Below are positions 1 to 22,597 of a stretch of 40,052 nucleotides of DNA, piece after piece. Position 1 is the stretch's first letter. The number at the start of each line of letters is the position of its first letter. The DNA comes from a virus (taxonomy: Duplodnaviria; Heunggongvirae; Uroviricota; Caudoviricetes), in IMG/VR virus record IMGVR_UViG_646206259_000001. One strand, 5' to 3'. The position numbers and the translations under genes were made by a program. A model generated the notes under the pieces. The model did no database searches and was not told the origin of the DNA. It worked only from the letters and a program-made list of their open reading frames with translations.

Positions 1-498
1 CATATTCTTTTCGGCGACATGCTCGGGATAACCATCGGCGATATAATCCAGACGATGATTATTGCCGGGCTGGTTACACTTGTTATTAGCGTAAAATGGC
101 GGGATTTTTTGCTGTTCAGCTTTGATTATCAACAGGCGCAGGTAAGCGGTTTGCATACGAGATGGCTGCATTATGGGCTGCTGTGCATGGTCTCTCTGAC
201 CATTGTGGCGACGCTGAAAGCGGTAGGTATCATTCTCTCCATTTCTCTGCTCATTGCGCCTGGCGCCATTGCGGTACTCCTGACACAACGCTTTCATATT
301 GCGCTCCTACTGGCGACTGGCATATCGGTAATAGTGTCAATGACTGGTGTCTGGTTGTCCTTTTTTATCGACAGCGCACCAGCTCCGACGATTGTCGTCT
401 TATTCGCGGTTTTGTTCATCATGACGTTTGCCGTTACCAGCATCAACGCACGCAAAAAGGGAAACTCCCATACACAGGATCTGTTATCACCCAATTAG
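1..498 (+). CDS. sitD: Metal (Mn/Fe) ABC transporter permease, C-terminal part; 5' end lies outside the window
   Basis: Frame open from base 1 to the stop at 496-498; polytopic hydrophobic protein with ABC-3 permease-like segments; SitD/MntB family resemblance from memory. Confidence 0.55.
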   Translation, partial: HILFGDMLGITIGDIIQTMIIAGLVTLVISVKWRDFLLFSFDYQQAQVSGLHTRWLHYGLLCMVSLTIVATLKAVGIILSISLLIAPGAIAVLLTQRFHIALLLATGISVIVSMTGVWLSFFIDSAPAPTIVVLFAVLFIMTFAVTSINARKKGNSHTQDLLSPN

Positions 499-589
499 CA
501 CAACATCCGAGGACAGCAACACCCGATACTTTTTCCTGGCTTCCAGCAACGGGGTTTCTTCCTCCGTTGCATATACAGCTCACCTTTTT

Positions 590-883
590 TCACCCACGAT
601 TAACCAACAGCCAGACCAGCAGACACGCCACCACCGGCACAGCAAAATCCATCAGGCTTGCCACATCCCAAGCTCGCGGATCAAAACCGCCCCACCACGG
701 CATATTCATTCGCTTGCCATGCCCGAACATTTCAATCCAGCGATATTCTGCCTGGGTATGTTCACGCGCAATGAAGAACGTACAACCGGCTATCGCTCCG
801 TAAGCCCAGTTTCCGGTAAAAAGACCAACCAGTATCTGCGCAGCCACAGCACAAAGCGCATGAAGTAAGGGGCTTATATCCAT
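590..883 (-). CDS. Hypothetical small membrane protein (97 aa)
   Basis: ORF with two hydrophobic segments; co-directional with and 13 nt downstream of the tail-fibre accessory ORF. Confidence 0.4.
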   Translation of the reverse strand: MDISPLLHALCAVAAQILVGLFTGNWAYGAIAGCTFFIAREHTQAEYRWIEMFGHGKRMNMPWWGGFDPRAWDVASLMDFAVPVVACLLVWLLVNRG

Positions 884-895
884 TATTTCCTCCTT

Positions 896-1174
896 TCAGC
901 TCCATTCCCGAAGCGGTGTTTCCAGCTCCACGACATAATCAGAGAATACAGAAACATCAAACAAGTCATCAAGAATGCGAATGTTGACAAAATAACCGTC
1001 ATTCCGGACACAGACAGGTTCTCCCTCTTCTGTTACCCCTGTTTCTGTGTAGGTGAAACCAATTTCATCGACTAACAGTTTATTCTGGAGGTCTTCATCC
1101 TCCTCCCAGTCAAGAGATGACAGGAAGGCCTTAAACTGCAGTTTGTCATGAAACTTCAAAGTTAAATCTTTCAT
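896..1174 (-). CDS. Hypothetical acidic protein (92 aa) coupled to the tail fibre gene; not Tfa-like
   Basis: Start overlaps the stf stop (ATGA, 1171-1174); acidic composition (DWEEDEDL...). Confidence 0.45.
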   Translation of the reverse strand: MKDLTLKFHDKLQFKAFLSSLDWEEDEDLQNKLLVDEIGFTYTETGVTEEGEPVCVRNDGYFVNIRILDDLFDVSVFSDYVVELETPLREWS

Positions 1175-3237
1175 ACGACCTCTTTTAATTGCCTGTCATT
1201 TAATTCTTTATGCCATATGCGGAAATTGCGAATATGGCCAAACAGATGTCGTTCTCCAGTATTCGTCTGCCCTCCAAATCGGATATTTTTATCAGCGGTC
1301 ACACCATTATATTCACAATAAACTTCATTAACCGCTTTACCATTTGTCACCACATGAAAGTGACCATCAGCTTTTGCAATACATCCAAATGTGGTTTTCT
1401 CTGCAAATACATCTGTCGCTGCGCTATTAACATACAAGCCTGAAGGGTTTGACAGACTCATATATAACTTACCACTACCTCTGTTGATTGCTGCAATTGC
1501 TGATTGCCCGGTATTGGCTGCTGCTATATCCCACACGCGGGGTGCGGCGTTTGGTGCAATATCCCAGTTTTTATGAATCTCAAGTAAAAAAGTAAATGGT
1601 AACTTATAAAGATTATTTCTGGTGGGGATACTAACCAAATCACTGGCTCTTGTCGTTGCGCTGCCTCCTGAAATAATAAATGATGATACACACGGCCCAT
1701 TCTCTACTTGTGGGGTGGCAAGATAAATATAGTCACCAGATACTGTTGCCCCACCCCGCTCAGGAGAATACTGTATCTGAGAGCCTATTTTTAACTCACC
1801 ATCAATTGCCTGAATCGTTGCCTCTGCAAAAATCCAGCCTGTGGTCTTATCCTTCCTGACTCGTGCCGTAATTCTGCCGGCAGCCCCACCTGTCATATTA
1901 ATTTCAAGCGTTTGCGTATCAATGTACGCATCGCCAAGAAAAGTTGTTGCACTACCATCATACTTATCAAACCGTATACGTAACCTTACCTGTCGTTCTG
2001 TTTTAAAACGGCATGAGGTTGTCACGTACTTGTTATCGCCTGAGACATCAACTGACTTTGTTGCAGCAATTGATGCCATATTAATAGCCGAAGTTTGCCC
2101 AACCAGAGAATCGTTGCAGACAAACTTTCCATAAGTAAAACCAAAACTATCTGTCCCGGTTTCGGGCACATCCATGTTTGATGACTTCCCCCAGCTGGCT
2201 GGACTTTCCGAATTGAGCATGTAGTTCGTTCTTTGTCCCTCAATAAGCAGGCCATCACACTCAAATCGCGGCTCATTAATTTCCGCCGTTTTCAGTTCGC
2301 CAGATTTGTTGATATATGTTGCCGTTGATGCGCGACTGAAATTAACCTGTTTATCACTGGCGACCTGAACCACATCGTCACCAATAGCTATTTTTTTATA
2401 GCCCGGAGAAAAACCCGCAATCATATCCAGTGAATCGTTAAACGGTATCCACACATCAGGCAGCGGCGGCACTATATTCGCATAGGGCTCTGCAGTCACT
2501 TCCGCTGCGACTTCTGCGCGGTCTGCCGCCTTTTCAGCCCGTGTCGCTGCCGACAGAGCCTCATCCTTTTTCTGCCCGGCCTTTGTTGCGTCTGCTGCGG
2601 CCTCCCGCGCTTTTGTGGTGGCGACTCCGGCATTTTCAGCGGCTGACTCTGCATTACGGCGGGAAGCCTCTTCACTGTCTGCGGAGGCTTCTTCTGACGC
2701 ACGGGCATTTGTCTCTGAACGTTCTGCCGCTGTTGCTGCGTTTTGTGCGGCTGTTTTTGAAGAAGCTGCCGCTTTCGCGCTGTTACCTGCATTCGTCTCT
2801 GATGTTTTCGCCGCATTCCTGGACGATGCCGCTGCTGTTTCTGATTTCTTTGCTGCCGCTGCGCTCTGAGAGGCGGCTTCAGCGTTGCGTGCCACCTCTT
2901 CCACCATCTTTTCAAAACGATACAGTGCCTCCGGACGAACATCATCTTCTGTTGCAGCGCCCAGAAAATCATTCAATGTCCCCGGCTTAGAATCCTCATA
3001 CACGGTGATGGCCCCGGCATGTGAAGGCGGAAAACCTTCAACCAGCAGGATAACGCTGTACTGGCCATACTCGACATCCATGCTGTAACGTCCGGCTTCA
3101 TCCGGATTTTCTGAGGCCACCGTGTTCACCACAACCGTGGTGCTGTTACGTTTTGCTTTGAGCTGAATGGTGCAGTTCTGTATCGGTTTTCCTGCACCGT
3201 CTTTCAGCACGCCTGAAATCTGTACTGCCATATTCAC
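1171..3237 (-). CDS. stf: Side tail fibre protein Stf with a non-lambda C-terminal region
   Basis: N-terminal ~260 aa match lambda Stf (MAVQISGVLKDGAGKPIQNCTIQLKAKRNST..., Ala/Ser-rich repeats); C-terminal ~400 aa differ from lambda. Confidence 0.85.
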   Translation of the reverse strand: MNMAVQISGVLKDGAGKPIQNCTIQLKAKRNSTTVVVNTVASENPDEAGRYSMDVEYGQYSVILLVEGFPPSHAGAITVYEDSKPGTLNDFLGAATEDDVRPEALYRFEKMVEEVARNAEAASQSAAAAKKSETAAASSRNAAKTSETNAGNSAKAAASSKTAAQNAATAAERSETNARASEEASADSEEASRRNAESAAENAGVATTKAREAAADATKAGQKKDEALSAATRAEKAADRAEVAAEVTAEPYANIVPPLPDVWIPFNDSLDMIAGFSPGYKKIAIGDDVVQVASDKQVNFSRASTATYINKSGELKTAEINEPRFECDGLLIEGQRTNYMLNSESPASWGKSSNMDVPETGTDSFGFTYGKFVCNDSLVGQTSAINMASIAATKSVDVSGDNKYVTTSCRFKTERQVRLRIRFDKYDGSATTFLGDAYIDTQTLEINMTGGAAGRITARVRKDKTTGWIFAEATIQAIDGELKIGSQIQYSPERGGATVSGDYIYLATPQVENGPCVSSFIISGGSATTRASDLVSIPTRNNLYKLPFTFLLEIHKNWDIAPNAAPRVWDIAAANTGQSAIAAINRGSGKLYMSLSNPSGLYVNSAATDVFAEKTTFGCIAKADGHFHVVTNGKAVNEVYCEYNGVTADKNIRFGGQTNTGERHLFGHIRNFRIWHKELNDRQLKEVV

Positions 3238-3289
3238 TCCACAAATAAAAAAGGCGCCATTTCTGGCGCCCGTATCTGGGTTATAAAAT

Positions 3290-6200
3290 TCAACTGATAC
3301 TGATACCGGCTGTAGATTTCTTCATCACAACAACAAGAAGGTCGCTGATACTGGTCGTTGGCGTCCAGTTATTAGCACCATATGAAGAAACATTGAAAGT
3401 CAGGGTGACATGGCCGTGTCCGGCAGGCATATCAATGACTGATGAAAATACCCTGCTGACATCCGTCGCGGGTTGCTGAAAGATTTCCTGTCCGTTCTTC
3501 AGTACCTGCAGCTTACAGGTTGAATACCAGTATGACTGTTGGTTGTTGCTGTTGAAGTTTTCATGCTTACCCCCACGAAACAGAACGGGGGGGACTACTA
3601 TCTGACGGTCAAAAGCCTGGTCATCGTACACAGTGACCGTTATTGTACCGCTGGCATAACTGCCATTTCTCGGAAAGGCTTTTCCCACCGTTTTGACAAT
3701 ATCACCTTCAATCTGGTTAGCTGACAGTTTTCCCAGAATCCGACAGTTCTGATTAATCGTGACGTTGTTGAGCGTCCCGGAGTTCGCGTTCACGTTACCG
3801 CTGATATCCGCATTTTTCGCAGAAAGTCGACCATCAGGTGTCAGTGAAAACGTTGGGGGATTGCCACCGCTGGTAATGGTGGGAGCCGTCAGATATTTCA
3901 GGAACACTTCGTTCATGAATATCTGATCGCCCTGCCCAACAAACATCGGCTTTGTGTTGCCATTCGCAGGATTAATCATCGCAATCCTGTCCGCCGCCAG
4001 CAGCACCTGACTCTGCATACCGTCAGGAGTATTCTCAACACCGGCACCAATACCCGCGATATAAAGGCGTCCGTCCTGCATCTGCTGCAGCTTCACAGCC
4101 CACATGCTGTTCAGGTTATTATTTGTATCAACCTGAACCTTCTGTATCTGCTGGATCGCTGCACTCTGGTCTTCCAGTTTCTTATTGACGGTCTGCGTGA
4201 TTTCATTGCTGACACCCGTAATGGACGTCCTGATTTCAGCCAGGTCAGGCGCAAGCTGACCGTTATCAATCTGCGTCCACAACTCCTGAGCCAGATGGGT
4301 TTTCCCTATCTCTCCTTTGAAAAAATCCAGATAGCCGGATGCATCATCACTCGGCTGGCCAACAGCCTCCACAAATGCCGATTTGCCAACGGTGTTCACA
4401 CTGCGGATGTAAAAATAATAATCATGGCCCGGTTTGATATTGATACTGGCGGCTATCCAGTACAGCGCCGTGCCAAGATAGCGTGCTGTGGTTTCAACCT
4501 GCCTGATATCCGCAATCCGCTTTTCCGAGAACCAGAACTCAAACTGTACCGTCGGATCATAAACCGCAAGATGCGGCGTGGCGGTTATCTGAAAATACCC
4601 CGGTGTCAGCTCAATCTGCGACGGCGCTGCCGGTGCGGCAATCCGGAACGATACCGATNNNNNNNNNNNNNNNNNNNNNNNNNNNNNNNNNNNNNNNNNN
4701 NNNNNNNNNNNNNNNNNNNNNNNNNNNNNNNNNNNNNNNNNNNNNNNNNNNNNNNNNNNNNNNNNNNNNNNNNNNNNNNNNNNNNNNNNNNNNNNNNNNN
4801 NNNNNNNNNNNNNNNNNNNNNNNNNNNNNNNNNNNNNNNNNNNNNNNNNNNNNNNNNNNNNNNNNNNNNNNNNNNNNNNNNNNNNNNNNNNNNNNNNNNN
4901 NNNNNNNNNNNNNNNNNNNNNNNNNNNNNNNNNNNNNNNNNNNNNNNNNNNNNNNNNNNNNNNNNNNNNNNNNNNNNNNNNNNNNNNNNNNNNNNNNNNN
5001 NNNNNNNNNNNNNNNNNNNNNNNNNNNNNNNNNNNNNNNNNNNNNNNNNNNNNNNNNNNNNNNNNNNNNNNNNNNNNNNNNNNNNNNNNNNNNNNNNNNN
5101 NNNNNNNNNNNNNNNNNNNNNNNNNNNNNNNNNNNNNNNNNNNNNNNNNNNNNNNNNNNNNNNNNNNNNNNNNNNNNNNNNNNNNNNNNNNNNNNNNNNN
5201 NNNNNNNNNNNNNNNNNNNNNNNNNNNNNNNNNNNNNNNNNNNNNNNNNNNNNNNNNNNNNNNNNNNNNNNNNNNNNNNNNNNNNNNNNNNNNNNNNNNN
5301 NNNNNNNNNNNNNNNNNNNNNNNNNNNNNNNNNNNNNNNNNNNNNNNNNNNNNNNNNNNNNNNNNNNNNNNNNNNNNNNNNNNNNNNNNNNNNNNNNNNN
5401 NNNNNNNNNNNNNNNNNNNNNNNNNNNNNNNNNNNNNNNNNNNNNNNNNNNNNNNNNNNNNNNNNNNNNNNNNNNNNNNNNNNNNNNNNNNNNNNNNNNN
5501 NNNNNNNNNNNNNNNNNNNNNNNNNNNNNNNNNNNNNNNNNNNNNNNNNNNNNNNNNNNNNNNNNNNNNNNNNNNNNNNNNNNNNNNNNNNNNNNNNNNN
5601 NNNNNNNNNNNNNNNNNNNNNNNNNNNNNNNNNNNNNNNNNNNNNNNNNNNNNNNNNNNNNNNNNNNNNNNNNNNNNNNNNNNNNNNNNNNNNNNNNNNN
5701 NNNNNNNNNNNNNNNNNNNNNNNNNNNNNNNNNNNNNNNNNNNNNNNNNNNNNNNNNNNNNNNNNNNNNNNNNNNNNNNNNNNNNNNNNNNNNNNNNNNN
5801 NNNNNNNNNNNNNNNNNNNNNNNNNNNNNNNNNNNNNNNNNNNNNNNNNNNNNNNNNNNNNNNNNNNNNNNNNNNNNNNNNNNNACTGGTCTGTGGTGCT
5901 GTCCGGCGTCATCCTGCGCATCCGGATATTAAACGGGCGCGGCGGCAGGTTATCCACCACCACCGAGGCCAGATACTGCGAGGTGGTTTTGCCTTTAATG
6001 GTGATGTCTTTTTCCGTCACCCAGCCACCGTTACGCTGTATCTGAACCAGCAGGCGGACTTCCGACGGATTCCGGTCCCCCTTTGAGGTGGTTTCCACCA
6101 GTGCCTGCACACCGAAGGTAAAGCGCAGACGGTCGATGTTTGCAGACGTGATGGTCCGGGTAATCGGCGTGTCGTACTTCACTTCCGTACCCAGCACCGT

Positions 6201-6521: not shown

Positions 6522-7023
6522 TCAGCGACCAATCACCACAACCTGACCACCGTCCCCTTCGTCTGCCGTGCTGATCTCCTGAGAAACCACGCGTGACCCC
6601 ACGCGCATTTCCCCGTACAGAACAGGCAGAACATTGCCCTGGGCAACCATGTTATCCAGTGAGGAGAAATAGGTGTTCTGCTTACCGTTATCCGTTGTCT
6701 GTGTACGGGGAGTTCTGGCTTTCGGTGCCAGCATCTGCGCCACACCACCGAGGACCATACTGGCACCGAGAGAAAACAGGATGCCGGTCATACCACCGGC
6801 CCCAATGGCTGCCCCCCATGCTGCAAGGGTGGCTCCGGCGGTAAAGAATGATCCGGCAATGGCGGCAGCCCCCAGGACAATCTGGAATACGCCACCTGAC
6901 TTGGCCCCGGCGACTCTGGGAACAATATGAATCACAGCGCCATCAGGCAGAGTCTCATGTAACTGCGCCGTTAACCCGGACGTGCTGACGTCCCGCCCGG
7001 CAATCCGTACCTGATACCAGCCG
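6522..7023 (-). CDS. I: Tail assembly protein I, C-terminal part (N-terminus in N-run)
   Basis: ...IAGSFFTAGATLAAWGAAIGAGGMTGILFSLGASMVLGGVAQMLAPKARTP...GGQVVVIGR matches lambda gpI C-terminus. Confidence 0.85.
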
Positions 7024-7959
7024 NNNNNNNNNNNNNNNNNNNNNNNNNNNNNNNNNNNNNNNNNNNNNNNNNNNNNNNNNNNNNNNNNNNNNNNNNNNNN
7101 NNNNNNNNNNNNNNNNNNNNNNNNNNNNNNNNNNNNNNNNNNNNNNNNNNNNNNNNNNNNNNNNNNNNNNNNNNNNNNNNNNNNNNNNNNNNNNNNNNNN
7201 NNNNNNNNNNNNNNNNNNNNNNNNNNNNNNNNNNNNNNNNNNNNNNNNNNNNNNNNNNNNNNNNNNNNNNNNNNNNNNNNNNNNNNNNNNNNNNNNNNNN
7301 NNNNNNNNNNNNNNNNNNNNNNNNNNNNNNNNNNNNNNNNNNNNNNNNNNNNNNNNNNNNNNNNNNNNNNNNNNNNNNNNNNNNNNNNNNNNNNNNNNNN
7401 NNNNNNNNNNNNNNNNNNNNNNNNNNNNNNNNNNNNNNNNNNNNNNNNNNNNNNNNNNNNNNNNNNNNNNNNNNNNNNNNNNNNNNNNNNNNNNNNNNNN
7501 NNNNNNNNNNNNNNNNNNNNNNNNNNNNNNNNNNNNNNNNNNNNNNNNNNNNNNNNNNNNNNNNNNNNNNNNNNNNNNNNNNNNNNNNNNNNNNNNNNNN
7601 NNNNNNNNNNNNNNNNNNNNNNNNNNNNNNNNNNNNNNNNNNNNNNNNNNNNNNNNNNNNNNNNNNNNNNNNNNNNNNNNNNNNNNNNNNNNNNNNNNNN
7701 NNNNNNNNNNNNNNNNNNNNNNNNNNNNNNNNNNNNNNNNNNNNNNNNNNNNNNNNNNNNNNNNNNNNNNNNNNNNNNNNNNNNNNNNNNNNNNNNNNNN
7801 NNNNNNNNNNNNNNNNNNNNNNNNNNNNNNNNNNNNNNNNNNNNNNNNNNNNNNNNNNNNNNNNNNNNNNNNNNNNNNNNNNNNNNNNNNNNNNNNNNNN
7901 NNNNNNNNNNNNNNNNNNNNNNNNNNNNNNNNNNNNNNNNNNNNNNNNNNNNNNNNNNN
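7024..7959. other. N-run where H C-terminus, M, L, K and I N-terminus are expected
   Basis: 936 consecutive n; shorter than the ~2.1 kb the missing genes need. Confidence 1.
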
Positions 7960-10568
7960 GTGAAGACAAATTCACCACGGTGAACAATCCCCGCTGGCTC
8001 ATATTTGCCGCCGGTTCCCGTAAATCCCCCGGTCGCAAAACGGAATTTCGCCGCAGCGGCCTGAATGGCTGTACCGCCTGACGCGGATGCTCCACCACTG
8101 GCAGCACCGCCAATGGCGCTGCCGATACTCCCGACAATCCCCACCATTGCCTGCTTAAGCAGAATTTCTGTCATCATGGACAGCACGGAACGGGTGAAGC
8201 TGCGCCAGTTCTGCTCACTGCCGGTCAGCATCGCCGCCATATTCTGTGCAATACCATCAAAGGTCTGCGTGGCTGCACTTTTAACCTGCGACATACTGTC
8301 CGTGGCGCTCTCTTCCCACTCACTCCAGCCGGACTTCAGGCCTGCCATCCAGCTCCCGCGAAGCTGGTCTTCAGCCGCCCAGGTCTTTTTCTGCTCTGAC
8401 ATGACGTTATTCAGCGCCAGCGGATTATCGCCATACTGTTCCTTCAGGCGCTGTTCCGTGGCTTCCCGTTCTGCCTGCCGGTCAGTCAGCCCCCGGCTTT
8501 TCGCATCAATGGCGGCCCGTTTTGCCCGTTGCTGCTGTGCGAATTTATCCGCCTGCTGCGCCAGCGCGTTCAGGCGCTCCTGATACGTAACCTTGTCGCC
8601 AAGTGCAGCCAGCTGGCGTTTGTACTCCAGCGTCTCATCTTTATGCGCCAGCAGGGATTTCTCCTGTGCAGACAGCTGGCGACGTTGCGCCGCCTCCTCC
8701 AGTACCGCGAACTGACTCTCCGCCTTCCACAAATCCCGGCGCTGCTGGCTGATTTTCTCATTCGCTCCGGCATGCTTCTCCAGCGTCCGGAGTTCTGCCT
8801 GAAGCGTCAGCAGGGCGGCATGAGCACTGTCTTCCTGACGATCGCCCGCAGACACCTTCACGCCGGACTGTTTCGGCTTTTTCAGCGTCGCTTCATAATC
8901 CTTTTTCGCCGCCGCCATCAGCGTGTTGTAATCCGCCTGCAGGATTTTCCCGTCTTTCAGTGCCTTGTTCAGTTCTTCCTGACGGGCGGTATATTTCTCC
9001 AGCGGCGTCTGCAGCCGTTCGTAAGCCTTCTGCGCCTCTTCGGTATATTTCAGCCGTGACGCTTCGGTATCGCTCTGCTGCTGCGCATTTTTGTCCTGTT
9101 GAGTCTGCTGCTCAGCCTTCTTTCGGGCGGCTTCAAGCGCAAGACGGGCCTTTTCACGATCATCCCAGTAACGCGCCCGCGCTTCATCGTTAACAAAATA
9201 ATCATCCTTGCGCAGATTCCAGATGTCGTCTGCTTTCTTAAACGCAGCCTCTGCCTTAATCAGCATCTCCTGCGCGGTATCAGGACGACCAATATCCAGC
9301 ACCGCATCCCACATGGATTTGAATGCCCGCGCTGTCCTGTCTGCCCAGGTCTCCAGCGTGCCCATGTTCTCTTTCAGGCGGCGGGTCTGGTCATCAAACC
9401 CTTTCGTTGCGGCTTCGTTCGCCGCCTGCAATGCCCCGGCTTCATCGCCGGAACGCTGCAACTGAGCAACATACGCAATCTGCTCCGCCGTCACGTTATG
9501 GAACTGGCGCGCCATCGCCGTCAGCCCCGACGTCGGGTCAGTGGTCAGCTTCCCGAAGGCTTCAGCGACCTTGTCCACCTCCACGCCGGATGCAGAGGAG
9601 AAACGCGCCACACTCTGGCTGATGGACGCAATCTGAGCCTCACCGCTTACCCCCGCCTTAACCAGTGCACTGAGTGACTCGCTGGTCTGGTTAAACGTCA
9701 GCCCTGCCGCCTGCCCGGCTCTGGACAGGACCAGCATACGATCTGCCGTCAGACCTGACTGATGACCGGAAAGGACCAGCGTTTTGTTGAAATCGGACAG
9801 GGTTGAGTTACCCTGATACCAGGCATACGCCAGCGCACCGGTCNNNNNNNNNNNNNNNNNNNNNNNNNNNNNNNNNNNNNNNNNNNNNNNNNNNNNNNNN
9901 NNNNNNNNNNNNNNNNNNNNNNNNNNNNNNNNNNNNNNNNNNNNNNNNNNNNNNNNNNNNNNNNNNNNNNNNNNNNNNNNNNNNNNNNNNNNNNNNNNNN
10001 NNNNNNNNNNNNNNNNNNNNNNNNNNNNNNNNNNNNNNNNNNNNNNNNNNNNNNNNNNNNNNNNNNNNNNNNNNNNNNNNNNNNNNNNNNNNNNNNNNNN
10101 NNNNNNNNNNNNNNNNNNNNNNNNNNNNNNNNNNNNNNNNNNNNNNNNNNNNNNNNNNNNNNNNNNNNNNNNNNNNNNNNNNNNNNNNNNNNNNNNNNNN
10201 NNNNNNNNNNNNNNNNNNNNNNNNNNNNNNNNNNNNNNNNNNNNNNNNNNNNNNNNNNNNNNNNNNNNNNNNNNNNNNNNNNNNNNNNNNNNNNNNNNNN
10301 NNNNNNNNNNNNNNNNNNNNNNNNNNNNNNNNNNNNNNNNNNNNNNNNNNNNNNNNNNNNNNNNNNNNNNNNNNNNNNNNNNNNNNNNNNNNNNNNNNNN
10401 NNNNNNNNNNNNNNNNNNCCGGTTCATTGACTGTTCAACGACTGCCGCTGTTTTTTTCGCATCACTTTCCGTACCGGAAAAATGACGCCTGACTCTGGCC
10501 ATCTGCTCGTCAAATCTGGCTGCATCCAGACTTAAATCAACGACCAGATCGCCTACCGGTTCAGCCAT
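7960..10568 (-). CDS. H: Tail tape measure protein H (C-terminus in N-run 7024-7959; internal N-run 9844-10418)
   Basis: MAEPVGDLVVDLSLDAARFDEQMARVRRHF... at the N-terminus and long coiled-coil region ending ...GGKYEPAGIVHRGEFVF match lambda gpH. Confidence 0.9.
9844..10418. other. N-run inside H
   Basis: 575 consecutive n. Confidence 1.
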
Positions 10569-15255: not shown

Positions 15256-16812
15256 NNNNNNNNNNNNNNNNNNNNNNNNNNNNNNNNNNNNNNNNNNNNN
15301 NNNNNNNNNNNNNNNNNNNNNNNNNNNNNNNNNNNNNNNNNNNNNNNNNNNNNNNNNNNNNNNNNNNNNNNNNNNNNNNNNNNNNNNNNNNNNNNNNNNN
15401 NNNNNNNNNNNNNNNNNNNNNNNNNNNNNNNNNNNNNNNNNNNNNNNNNNNNNNNNNNNNNNNNNNNNNNNNNNNNNNNNNNNNNNNNNNNNNNNNNNNN
15501 NNNNNNNNNNNNNNNNNNNNNNNNNNNNNNNNNNNNNNNNNNNNNNNNNNNNNNNNNNNNNNNNNNNNNNNNNNNNNNNNNNNNNNNNNNNNNNNNNNNN
15601 NNNNNNNNNNNNNNNNNNNNNNNNNNNNNNNNNNNNNNNNNNNNNNNNNNNNNNNNNNNNNNNNNNNNNNNNNNNNNNNNNNNNNNNNNNNNNNNNNNNN
15701 NNNNNNNNNNNNNNNNNNNNNNNNNNNNNNNNNNNNNNNNNNNNNNNNNNNNNNNNNNNNNNNNNNNNNNNNNNNNNNNNNNNNNNNNNNNNNNNNNNNN
15801 NNNNNNNNNNNNNNNNNNNNNNNNNNNNNNNNNNNNNNNNNNNNNNNNNNNNNNNNNNNNNNNNNNNNNNNNNNNNNNNNNNNNNNNNNNNNNNNNNNNN
15901 NNNNNNNNNNNNNNNNNNNNNNNNNNNNNNNNNNNNNNNNNNNNNNNNNNNNNNNNNNNNNNNNNNNNNNNNNNNNNNNNNNNNNNNNNNNNNNNNNNNN
16001 NNNNNNNNNNNNNNNNNNNNNNNNNNNNNNNNNNNNNNNNNNNNNNNNNNNNNNNNNNNNNNNNNNNNNNNNNNNNNNNNNNNNNNNNNNNNNNNNNNNN
16101 NNNNNNNNNNNNNNNNNNNNNNNNNNNNNNNNNNNNNNNNNNNNNNNNNNNNNNNNNNNNNNNNNNNNNNNNNNNNNNNNNNNNNNNNNNNNNNNNNNNN
16201 NNNNNNNNNNNNNNNNNNNNNNNNNNNNNNNNNNNNNNNNNNNNNNNNNNNNNNNNNNNNNNNNNNNNNNNNNNNNNNNNNNNNNNNNNNNNNNNNNNNN
16301 NNNNNNNNNNNNNNNNNNNNNNNNNNNNNNNNNNNNNNNNNNNNNNNNNNNNNNNNNNNNNNNNNNNNNNNNNNNNNNNNNNNNNNNNNNNNNNNNNNNN
16401 NNNNNNNNNNNNNNNNNNNNNNNNNNNNNNNNNNNNNNNNNNNNNNNNNNNNNNNNNNNNNNNNNNNNNNNNNNNNNNNNNNNNNNNNNNNNNNNNNNNN
16501 NNNNNNNNNNNNNNNNNNNNNNNNNNNNNNNNNNNNNNNNNNNNNNNNNNNNNNNNNNNNNNNNNNNNNNNNNNNNNNNNNNNNNNNNNNNNNNNNNNNN
16601 NNNNNNNNNNNNNNNNNNNNNNNNNNNNNNNNNNNNNNNNNNNNNNNNNNNNNNNNNNNNNNNNNNNNNNNNNNNNNNNNNNNNNNNNNNNNNNNNNNNN
16701 NNNNNNNNNNNNNNNNNNNNNNNNNNNNNNNNNNNNNNNNNNNNNNNNNNNNNNNNNNNNNNNNNNNNNNNNNNNNNNNNNNNNNNNNNNNNNNNNNNNN
16801 NNNNNNNNNNNN
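15256..16812. other. N-run where D N-terminus, C/Nu3 and B C-terminus are expected
   Basis: 1557 consecutive n. Confidence 1.
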
Positions 16813-18462: not shown

Positions 18463-19902
18463 NNNNNNNNNNNNNNNNNNNNNNNNNNNNNNNNNNNNNN
18501 NNNNNNNNNNNNNNNNNNNNNNNNNNNNNNNNNNNNNNNNNNNNNNNNNNNNNNNNNNNNNNNNNNNNNNNNNNNNNNNNNNNNNNNNNNNNNNNNNNNN
18601 NNNNNNNNNNNNNNNNNNNNNNNNNNNNNNNNNNNNNNNNNNNNNNNNNNNNNNNNNNNNNNNNNNNNNNNNNNNNNNNNNNNNNNNNNNNNNNNNNNNN
18701 NNNNNNNNNNNNNNNNNNNNNNNNNNNNNNNNNNNNNNNNNNNNNNNNNNNNNNNNNNNNNNNNNNNNNNNNNNNNNNNNNNNNNNNNNNNNNNNNNNNN
18801 NNNNNNNNNNNNNNNNNNNNNNNNNNNNNNNNNNNNNNNNNNNNNNNNNNNNNNNNNNNNNNNNNNNNNNNNNNNNNNNNNNNNNNNNNNNNNNNNNNNN
18901 NNNNNNNNNNNNNNNNNNNNNNNNNNNNNNNNNNNNNNNNNNNNNNNNNNNNNNNNNNNNNNNNNNNNNNNNNNNNNNNNNNNNNNNNNNNNNNNNNNNN
19001 NNNNNNNNNNNNNNNNNNNNNNNNNNNNNNNNNNNNNNNNNNNNNNNNNNNNNNNNNNNNNNNNNNNNNNNNNNNNNNNNNNNNNNNNNNNNNNNNNNNN
19101 NNNNNNNNNNNNNNNNNNNNNNNNNNNNNNNNNNNNNNNNNNNNNNNNNNNNNNNNNNNNNNNNNNNNNNNNNNNNNNNNNNNNNNNNNNNNNNNNNNNN
19201 NNNNNNNNNNNNNNNNNNNNNNNNNNNNNNNNNNNNNNNNNNNNNNNNNNNNNNNNNNNNNNNNNNNNNNNNNNNNNNNNNNNNNNNNNNNNNNNNNNNN
19301 NNNNNNNNNNNNNNNNNNNNNNNNNNNNNNNNNNNNNNNNNNNNNNNNNNNNNNNNNNNNNNNNNNNNNNNNNNNNNNNNNNNNNNNNNNNNNNNNNNNN
19401 NNNNNNNNNNNNNNNNNNNNNNNNNNNNNNNNNNNNNNNNNNNNNNNNNNNNNNNNNNNNNNNNNNNNNNNNNNNNNNNNNNNNNNNNNNNNNNNNNNNN
19501 NNNNNNNNNNNNNNNNNNNNNNNNNNNNNNNNNNNNNNNNNNNNNNNNNNNNNNNNNNNNNNNNNNNNNNNNNNNNNNNNNNNNNNNNNNNNNNNNNNNN
19601 NNNNNNNNNNNNNNNNNNNNNNNNNNNNNNNNNNNNNNNNNNNNNNNNNNNNNNNNNNNNNNNNNNNNNNNNNNNNNNNNNNNNNNNNNNNNNNNNNNNN
19701 NNNNNNNNNNNNNNNNNNNNNNNNNNNNNNNNNNNNNNNNNNNNNNNNNNNNNNNNNNNNNNNNNNNNNNNNNNNNNNNNNNNNNNNNNNNNNNNNNNNN
19801 NNNNNNNNNNNNNNNNNNNNNNNNNNNNNNNNNNNNNNNNNNNNNNNNNNNNNNNNNNNNNNNNNNNNNNNNNNNNNNNNNNNNNNNNNNNNNNNNNNNN
19901 NN
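18463..19902. other. N-run where Nu1, terminase large subunit A and W N-terminus are expected
   Basis: 1440 consecutive n; shorter than the ~2.5 kb expected. Confidence 1.
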
Positions 19903-22020: not shown

Positions 22021-22597
22021 CTATCTGCACTGCTCATTAATATACTTCTGGGTTCCTTCCAGTTGTTTTTGCATAGTGATCAGCCTCTNNNNNNNNNNNN
22101 NNNNNNNNNNNNNNNNNNNNNNNNNNNNNNNNNNNNNNNNNNNNNNNNNNNNNNNNNNNNNNNNNNNNNNNNNNNNNNNNNNNNNNNNNNNNNNNNNNNN
22201 NNNNNNNNNNNNNNNNNNNNNNNNNNNNNNNNNNNNNNNNNNNNNNNNNNNNNNNNNNNNNNNNNNNNNNNNNNNNNNNNNNNNNNNNNNNNNNNNNNNN
22301 NNNNNNNNNNNNNNNNNNNNNNNNNNNNNNNNNNNNNNNNNNNNNNNNNNNNNNNNNNNNNNNNNNNNNNNNNNNNNNNNNNNNNNNNNNNNNNNNNNNN
22401 NNNNNNNNNNNNNNNNNNNNNNNNNNNNNNNNNNNTATGTCAGTAATTACCGCGTTCGCCAGCGTCAGTTCTCTGGCATTTTTGTCGCGCTGGGCTTTGT
22501 AGGTAATGGCGTTATCACGGTAATGATTAACAGCCCATGACAGGCAGACGATGATGCAGATAACCAGAGCGGAGATAATCGCGGTTACTCTGTTCAT
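22021..22597 (-). CDS. Rz: Spanin Rz (i-spanin), interrupted by N-run 22089-22435; Rz1 presumably inside the N-run
   Basis: N-terminus [38 protein letters not shown]... and C-terminus ...[21 protein letters not shown] match lambda Rz, but the two parts are in different frames. Confidence 0.8.
22089..22435. other. N-run inside Rz
   Basis: 347 consecutive n. Confidence 1.

Follow-up and report, generated by a model that had tools for sequence, protein, structure and literature searches.

The side tail fibres of lambdoid phages determine their host range, as they do for lambda-derived delivery particles. In a 40,052-nt stretch of caudovirus DNA (IMG/VR record IMGVR_UViG_646206259_000001, hereafter the window), the side tail fibre gene stf combines a lambda-like beginning with a foreign end, and its downstream neighbours are two small genes, here called orf92 and orf97, instead of the assembly gene tfa. 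All three genes are on the minus strand, at positions first reported as 1171-3237, 896-1174, and 590-883, respectively. The question raised by this locus is what the foreign end of the fibre recognizes, and whether the two small proteins serve the fibre or have functions of their own. On balance, we consider it probable that Stf is a lectin-type fibre on a lambda stalk, that Orf92 is its dedicated partner, and that Orf97 is a separate membrane protein acting independently of the receptor. The coordinates of all features are collected in Table 1.

Sequence comparison identifies the locus as a side-tail-fibre cassette of the phage 21 type, carried by a lambdoid prophage; its sequence is ordinary and very common. 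Positions 500-3300 of the window are 100% identical to Escherichia phage 21 (OL657228). There, the counterparts CPT_21_22, CPT_21_23, and CPT_21_24 stand in the same order, followed by sitDCBA, and are labelled 'side tail fiber', 'hypothetical protein', and 'putative membrane protein (2 TMDs)', respectively. The phage 21 genome announcement gives these three genes no function (Feiss et al. 2022, PMC9119081), and the literature on their protein accessions and on phage 21 side tail fibres yielded no functional study of them. The remaining window matches the temperate phages PhiR63_2 and ev017 at 99-100%, and the DNA of the locus is also found in hundreds of genomes of extraintestinal pathogenic Escherichia coli (ExPEC) and of B2 strains. 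The orf92-orf97 pair is present in 1,127 of 5,426 complete E. coli genomes (coverage of at least 80%), at up to seven places per genome. Its carriers make up about one fifth of the complete genomes and include Nissle 1917, ATCC 25922, and many ExPEC strains. Phage 21 and all but one of 80 E. coli viral loci (79 of 80) keep the gene arrangement; thus, this set of open reading frames (ORFs) is not a product of chance, and the arrangement described in an earlier note on this DNA is real. As a sequence, the locus is not new, being already deposited and annotated. Two points appear to be undescribed: members of the orf92 family are obligately paired with a spike-fibre domain, and the orf97 family is distributed broadly and irrespective of the receptor.

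The mechanically derived ORF of stf starts at GTG 3237, which directly touches the Shine-Dalgarno sequence GGAG. Hence, the ATG at 3231 is most likely the real start, as in the phage 21 annotation. The encoded protein is 100% identical to the phage 21 coding sequence (CDS) UMO75437 and matches phrog_1419, annotated as 'tail protein', with 1102 bits. Its N-terminal anchor belongs to the lambda type: PF08400 scores 230 bits against a cut-off of 26.6, the N-terminus matches the solved lambda fragment in PDB entry 9e7m, 'Tail fiber protein' (E 1.4e-49), and the identity to lambda Stf orf-401 is 74% over residues 1-158. In the adjoining alanine-rich stretch, up to approximately residue 240, the identity to the alanine-rich region of orf-401 is 53%. 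The lambda-like portion thus comprises about 240 aa; the earlier note had recognized it correctly but put its length at about 260 aa. It was also right that the remainder is foreign to lambda. The distal part of Stf, about 440 aa, gives no alignment with lambda orf-314 (best E 1.2), shows no lambda/T4 gp37-like tip, and contains a spike-fibre domain and a putative lectin-like domain instead.

The first of these domains resembles a protein of a gene transfer agent (GTA). Residues ~280-540 of Stf match the head-spike fibre Rcc01080 (GhsB; PDB 6TB9) of the Rhodobacter capsulatus GTA (RcGTA), with E 1.4e-9 for the single sequence and 3.6e-36 for a profile built from nine homologues. The latter match spans residues 28-284 of 325, that is, nearly the entire Rcc01080. 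Membership in the spike-fibre family is also supported by NCBIfam model NF048003, whose curated cut-off of 36 bits is well exceeded by the Stf score (Table 1). Rcc01080 is present as one subunit per RcGTA head spike and binds the capsule of R. capsulatus (PMC7296036, PMC10218006). Unlike Rcc01080, which docks on the head-spike base by a Leu-Gly repeat, the Stf domain is placed on a lambda stalk. Relative to Rcc01080, Stf also has an additional putative LamG/CBM40-like domain at its C-terminus, and the Stf profile reaches the CBM40 lectin domain of the sialidase NanA (4c1w) with E 1.3e-4.

Among E. coli variants, residues ~340-640 of Stf are hypervariable, with a mean pairwise identity of 0.29-0.6, and this stretch overlaps the spike-fibre-like domain. 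Conservation is higher at residues 259-338 and over the final 40 aa. A hypervariable stretch flanked by conserved parts fits a diversifying receptor-binding surface. By its homology, the spike-fibre-like domain is the main candidate for a glycan-binding module, and Stf is most likely a polysaccharide-binding, lectin-type fibre on a lambda stalk. The lambda-type N-terminal module would plug such a fibre into the tail tip, and the alanine-rich stalk would carry the lectin-type head. The fibre would then bind reversibly to a surface polysaccharide, such as capsule or O-antigen, rather than to OmpC, the receptor of lambda Stf (10.1101/2022.09.30.509847).

Annotation of stf differs between databases. 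In ATCC 25922, the RefSeq/PGAP annotation of the identical and intact gene (NZ_CP009072, 4171-6231) consists of a 417-aa 'phage head spike fiber domain-containing protein' and an N-terminal pseudogene fragment, and the same product names recur in other RefSeq genomes listed. The phage 21 record places a 'CII binding site' (ttgynnnnnnttgy) inside stf, at window positions 2733-2746; this is probably a chance pattern match.

The locus shares with that of lambda (Ur-lambda) the anchor, the alanine-rich stalk, the position after J, and a 3' remnant of tfa. The remnant, 57 nt long, lies directly downstream of orf97 and marks the right edge of the replaced module. The translation of positions 499-573 reads YATEEETPLLEARKKYRVLLSSDVV, of which the portion ATEEETPLLEARKKYRVLL is the counterpart of the lambda tfa 3' end in the alignment. 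It is a scar, and the observation in the earlier note that no tfa follows stf holds: neither small protein shows any likeness to Tfa (Caudo_TAP, PF02413) by Pfam, NCBIfam, or BLASTP. The scar points to descent from a lambda-type locus in which a foreign unit replaced the distal half of stf and most of tfa. Exchange of fibre tips in mosaic fashion is well known, and here recombination would have swapped out the lambda-type distal stf together with tfa, leaving the scar behind. Thus, unlike the lambda locus, this one has a distal half unrelated to orf-314, predicted lectin-type domains, and neither Tfa nor lom. Because the head is predicted to consist of globular beta-sandwich domains and not of a lambda/T4-type tip, a trimerisation chaperone of the Tfa type would not be needed. 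The GC content splits the cassette in two: distal Stf (StfC) at 42-45% and orf92 at 42.7% stand against orf97 at 53.1%.

The position of tfa, immediately after the fibre gene, is taken by orf92. Its start overlaps the stf stop as ATGA (1174-1171), and the product is strongly acidic, with an isoelectric point (pI) of 4.1 and 22 D+E versus 8 K+R residues; the coupling and the acidity had both been noted correctly before. Unlike Tfa and gp38, with which it shares the position and the translational coupling, Orf92 is half the size of Tfa and has neither sequence nor fold similarity to it. The AlphaFold2 (AF2) model has a mean predicted local distance difference test (pLDDT) score of 89.3 and shows a small beta-alpha-alpha-beta4 fold, with a C-terminal tail that is conserved but less confidently modelled. 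Orf92 matches phrog_1361 (8.1e-42) and, more weakly, phrog_18574 (3e-6), both annotated as 'unknown function'. No significant Pfam, NCBIfam, or PADLOC family was found, and a profile search of the PDB returned nothing. Near relatives of orf92 are restricted to Escherichia and Shigella.

More distant relatives are found in prophages of Comamonas, Pantoea, and Chelativorans, where a protein of ~400-490 aa with spike-fibre and LamG domains is accompanied by an orf92-like gene. The overlap between the two genes is 4 nt in Comamonas and Pantoea. The order is different in Chelativorans: the fibre gene is overlapped by an orf97 homologue, behind which stands the orf92-like ORF. An hhalign comparison of the E. 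coli orf92 family with the family from these three genera gave a probability of 87% and E 4e-6 over the full length, and phrog_18574 is matched by both. With the Comamonas/Pantoea/Chelativorans group as a query, we found 28 diverse loci in IMG/VR, and all 28 contain a match to the spike-fibre hidden Markov model immediately upstream of the orf92-like gene. In several of them, the next ORFs resemble head-tail joining or terminase genes, as judged by sequence and length, with no family search made. Hence both tail-module and apparent head-module contexts are represented. In E. coli, stf and orf92 overlap by 4 nt or 1 nt in 82 of 83 loci (55 and 27, respectively), and the sole non-overlapping junction carries an insertion sequence (IS) element.

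From this synteny, the junction overlaps, and a low GC content like that of distal Stf, we infer that Orf92 is probably dedicated to the spike-fibre domain as its partner, in line with the earlier suggestion of a dedicated fibre factor. As a small acidic cytoplasmic protein, Orf92 would be made in step with the fibre by means of the overlapping stop and start codons. It would then act as a folding or assembly chaperone of the spike-fibre domain, or stay bound to it as a subunit.

The best surviving alternative, which we nevertheless regard as unlikely, is that orf92 encodes acidic cargo unrelated to the fibre, for example with an anti-defence or immunity-type role, and is simply carried along with the fibre module. 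The strong acidity of the protein would suit such a role, as would the lack of co-variation with the variable part of the receptor-binding domain. However, cargo would hardly be expected to stand next to spike-fibre genes in every one of the 28 viral loci, including the apparent head-module contexts, or to keep stop/start overlaps at nearly all E. coli junctions as well as in Comamonas and Pantoea. Besides, its GC content equals that of StfC, and PADLOC models gave no match at E<=1 to Orf92, nor to Stf or Orf97, so that none of the three resembles a defence protein known to PADLOC.

Several variant loci contain additional material at this point of the cassette. In phage Tritos (2577-6616 of its locus) and in loci L009, L011, and L102-L138, an extra tail-fibre gene of 234 or 346 aa stands between a 93-aa orf92 variant, ~53% identical to orf92, and orf97. 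This second fibre, following the orf92 homologue, has its own intramolecular chaperone domain, Peptidase_S74. A third variant contains an 89-aa relative of orf92 with ~30% identity. In phage 1W (OM475428, 999-3415), three 'mobile element protein' genes, IS66-like by gene layout, are located near the 3' end of stf, and the insertion parts stf from orf92 and orf97.

The second small gene, orf97, encodes a membrane protein, as the earlier note had stated. However, the AF2 model (pLDDT 97.3) shows three helices (residues 4-23, 26-53, and 74-96) rather than two transmembrane segments, and the gap to orf92 is 12 nt, not 13. The protein matches phrog_1443 (2.4e-58), again annotated as 'unknown function', and has no significant Pfam or NCBIfam family and no match in a profile search of the PDB. 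The orf97 family is large: clustering yields 577 groups at 90% identity and, at 50%, 429 representatives, none of which is fused to another domain; all members are ~90-130 aa long. It ranges over Gamma-, Beta-, and Alphaproteobacteria, and the E. coli protein is ~60% identical to those of Comamonas and Aeromonas. Among 57 diverse members, R40, E41, W72, and P83 are invariant, and H8, Q44, A45, and E46 are more than 90% conserved. K+R residues number ~5.9 on the side of the N-terminus and loop versus 0.6 on the other side, which favours a cytoplasmic location of the conserved loop. The UniRef name of one Aeromonas homologue, 'prolipoprotein diacylglyceryl transferase', is best regarded as spurious, since none of the 57 members matches Pfam LGT.

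The genomic contexts of orf97 are diverse. In 79 of 80 viral loci of E. coli, it comes after the gene of a spike-fibre-type Stf, and in variant loci such as that of phage Tritos, it follows the second fibre gene with the Peptidase_S74 domain. Elsewhere, homologues stand after a P22-like tailspike gene, with a 4-nt overlap; after tfa of a P2-like myovirus, also with a 4-nt overlap and right before the sheath gene (G-FI gap); and behind a beta-helix tailspike in Leclercia. In Comamonas nitrativorans and Pigmentiphaga humi (~6785-10054), a homologue is placed between the gene of a 370-383-aa variable protein and the pair of bAvd and reverse transcriptase genes, within what looks like a diversity-generating retroelement (DGR) cassette. 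In five loci from Comamonas, Pantoea, and Acidovorax prophages, the homologue is directly followed by ORFs resembling a lysis cassette (holin-like, endolysin, and spanins), as judged from the sequences, no family search having been made. Outside of phages, in Aeromonas and Alphaproteobacteria, the chromosomal neighbours are pnp, ligA, amn, and pirin/RIO1, and in several Aeromonas species the homologue is a solitary chromosomal gene at a syntenic position. Thus, orf97 is separately mobile and strongly constrained, and it is often translationally coupled after the last receptor-binding gene.

The earlier note had considered Orf97 as a receptor-modifying factor. In this explanation, the protein would be specific for the receptor of this fibre, either modifying or masking it, or would be a membrane-bound assembly factor. 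It agrees with the slot right after the receptor-binding module, where receptor-blocking genes like cor occur, and with the association with spike-fibre-type Stf in E. coli. We nevertheless think it improbable, because Orf97 hardly changes next to a hypervariable receptor-binding domain: the E. coli proteins are 95-100% identical, while the neighbouring StfC ranges from 35 to 100%. In addition, only five of the 28 orf92-like loci carry orf97, with 23 lacking it, and its GC content is unlike that of the fibre module. The occurrence of the family after unrelated receptor-binding genes (tailspikes, P2-type fibres, DGR targets) and at non-phage chromosomal sites indicates that it is not a fibre-specific factor, and its invariance beside a variable receptor-binding domain implies that the target must be invariant in the cell envelope or membrane. 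As an inner-membrane protein, Orf97 most likely acts on a conserved envelope or membrane target independently of the receptor, for example in a superinfection block or in adjustment of the envelope late in infection; an action on the fibre itself would be unlikely.

A holin-like or lysis-timing function of Orf97 is about equally improbable. The protein does have the size of ~100 aa and the three membrane helices that would suit a holin, it is expressed with late genes, and in Comamonas and Pantoea it stands immediately upstream of the apparent lysis genes mentioned above. However, the charged tail that holins typically have at the C-terminus is missing, and neither the window nor phage 21 has a lysis gene near orf97. 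Among the phages examined, those of the lambdoid, P22-like, and P2-like kinds carry the gene in the tail-fibre or tailspike region, away from the lysis genes, and where a lysis cassette is present, there are already other candidates for the holin. In Aeromonas, it is a conserved solitary chromosomal gene. An identity of ~60% between Gamma- and Betaproteobacteria is unusual for holins, and only one of the 57 members gives a weak match to Phage_holin_8.

It is very improbable that the whole region is a decaying prophage remnant with a non-functional fibre or small ORFs, since, notwithstanding the RefSeq pseudogene, the tfa scar adjoining the cassette, and the IS element inside stf of some relatives, the stf ORF is intact across 686 codons, identical DNA is present in the plaque-forming phages 21, ev017, PhiR63_2, and others, and Orf92 and Orf97 both fold confidently in AF2 and persist in >1,000 genomes.

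A natural comparison for orf97 is provided by other genes that occupy the slot after a receptor-binding gene, such as cor of phi80 and N15, fun(Z) of P2, gtrABC of P22, and llp of T5. Like them, orf97 directly follows the last gene for a fibre or tailspike. It is homologous to none of these genes, lacks a lipoprotein signal and, unlike cor-type genes, is often coupled to the preceding late gene instead of having its own promoter, and also occurs at non-phage chromosomal sites. A moron would be expected to have its own promoter and terminator. At orf97 we observed a 12-nt spacer with a Shine-Dalgarno sequence in the window and 4-nt overlaps elsewhere, and consensus scans of positions 400-3400, which give weak evidence, found promoter-like sites not above chance and none upstream of orf92 or orf97. 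The suggestion that Orf97 is an exclusion factor or cargo retains some plausibility, weakened by the lack of its own promoter and by the translational coupling in other phages. We also considered and rejected the tail-assembly-inhibition (Tai) systems, whose genes are found for the most part upstream of the packaging module; the Tai paper contains nothing that ties them to this locus.

Several observations weigh against the interpretation of the cassette as a lectin-type fibre with a dedicated partner and a receptor-independent membrane protein. For Stf, glycan binding is deduced from homology, and the match of PF13385 to residues ~562-683 scores 23.9 bits, under the Pfam cut-off of 27.6; the homologue in locus L034 reaches 39.2 bits, above it. 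For Orf92, tight co-variation with the receptor-binding domain is absent: one Orf92 type, 91-100% identical, is found beside StfC variants whose identity to each other is as low as 43%. A sliding-window comparison along Stf likewise showed no sharply localized signal, the best rho being 0.71 for residues ~248-278 and 0.62 for the last 40 aa, in an analysis that is confounded by recombination blocks and hence is weak evidence. As Orf92 does not track the variable head, it would bind Stf, if at all, at a conserved part. For Orf97, the topology is ambiguous, the sequence and fold yield no readable function, and the tight coupling to late genes without a promoter of its own argues against a classic moron expressed in the lysogen.

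A wider generalization is correspondingly more tentative, and we would put it somewhat below even chances. It holds jointly that the relatives of orf92 (phrog_1361 and phrog_18574) are a new class of obligate partners and that orf97 (phrog_1443) encodes a widespread envelope-acting membrane protein. In such a case, an Orf92-type partner, be it a chaperone or a bound tip subunit, would serve the spike-fibre domain on the tail or on the head. Orf97, with its conserved cluster H8/R40/E41/Q44/E46, would act on a universally conserved component of the envelope, for instance by blocking DNA entry or by altering the export of lipid-linked glycans in late infection.

Table 1. Features of the side-tail-fibre cassette, in window coordinates
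Feature	Position	Strand	Basis or remark
GC-rich hairpin and T-run between J and stf	3252..3271	minus	Sequence; terminator in the phage 21 annotation
stf, phage 21-type side tail fibre, 686 aa	1171..3231	minus	ORF from ATG 3231, preceded by Shine-Dalgarno GGAG
Stf N-terminal anchor, aa 1-133, lambda-type	2833..3231	minus	PF08400 phage_tail_N, E 9.8e-69
Ala-rich stalk, aa ~134-250, probable coiled coil	2482..2832	minus	Lambda-like; composition-biased; GC 59%
GTA head-spike-fibre-like domain, aa ~297-543	1603..2343	minus	NCBIfam NF048003 GTA_spike_fiber, 55.3 bits
Putative concanavalin/LamG-like lectin domain, aa ~562-683	1183..1548	minus	PF13385 Laminin_G_3 and CBM40 profile match
orf92, acidic 92-aa alpha/beta protein	896..1174	minus	Start overlaps stf stop
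Spacer orf92-orf97, 12 nt	884..895	minus	Sequence; contains AGGAGG (889-894), Shine-Dalgarno of orf97
orf97, 97-aa three-helix membrane protein	590..883	minus	phrog_1443; slot after receptor-binding gene
Lambda-type tfa 3'-end remnant, scar and not a gene	513..569	minus	53/57 nt identical to lambda tfa

The cassette is bordered upstream by J, which ends at 3290, with no lom gene between J and stf. On the other side, the 3' end of sitD (19-498, plus strand), encoding an iron/manganese ATP-binding cassette (ABC) transporter permease, converges on it; the whole sitABCD operon is prophage cargo at the same place in phage 21 and in ExPEC prophages. The right half of the window (20001-40052), where the match to PhiR63_2 and ev017 is likewise 99-100%, contains an integrase gene, lambda-type replication and recombination genes, and, as further cargo, a porin gene of the OmpD/NmpC type. 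Six runs of N mask the window (4659-5884, 7024-7959, 9844-10418, 15256-16812, 18463-19902, and 22089-22435), including the middle of gene J, and ORFs listed across them are artefactual.

In summary, as biology the cassette offers two small, well-defined protein families. The predicted lectin-like head is related to a GTA fibre that binds capsule, which suggests surface polysaccharides as receptors. Since a 92-aa partner gene accompanies this receptor-binding domain, transplanting the domain should include orf92. Genes of the orf97 type stand beside receptor-binding genes in siphoviruses, podoviruses, and myoviruses, and a well-conserved protein found in this position in all three morphotypes of tailed phages is a cheap and well-defined target for study.

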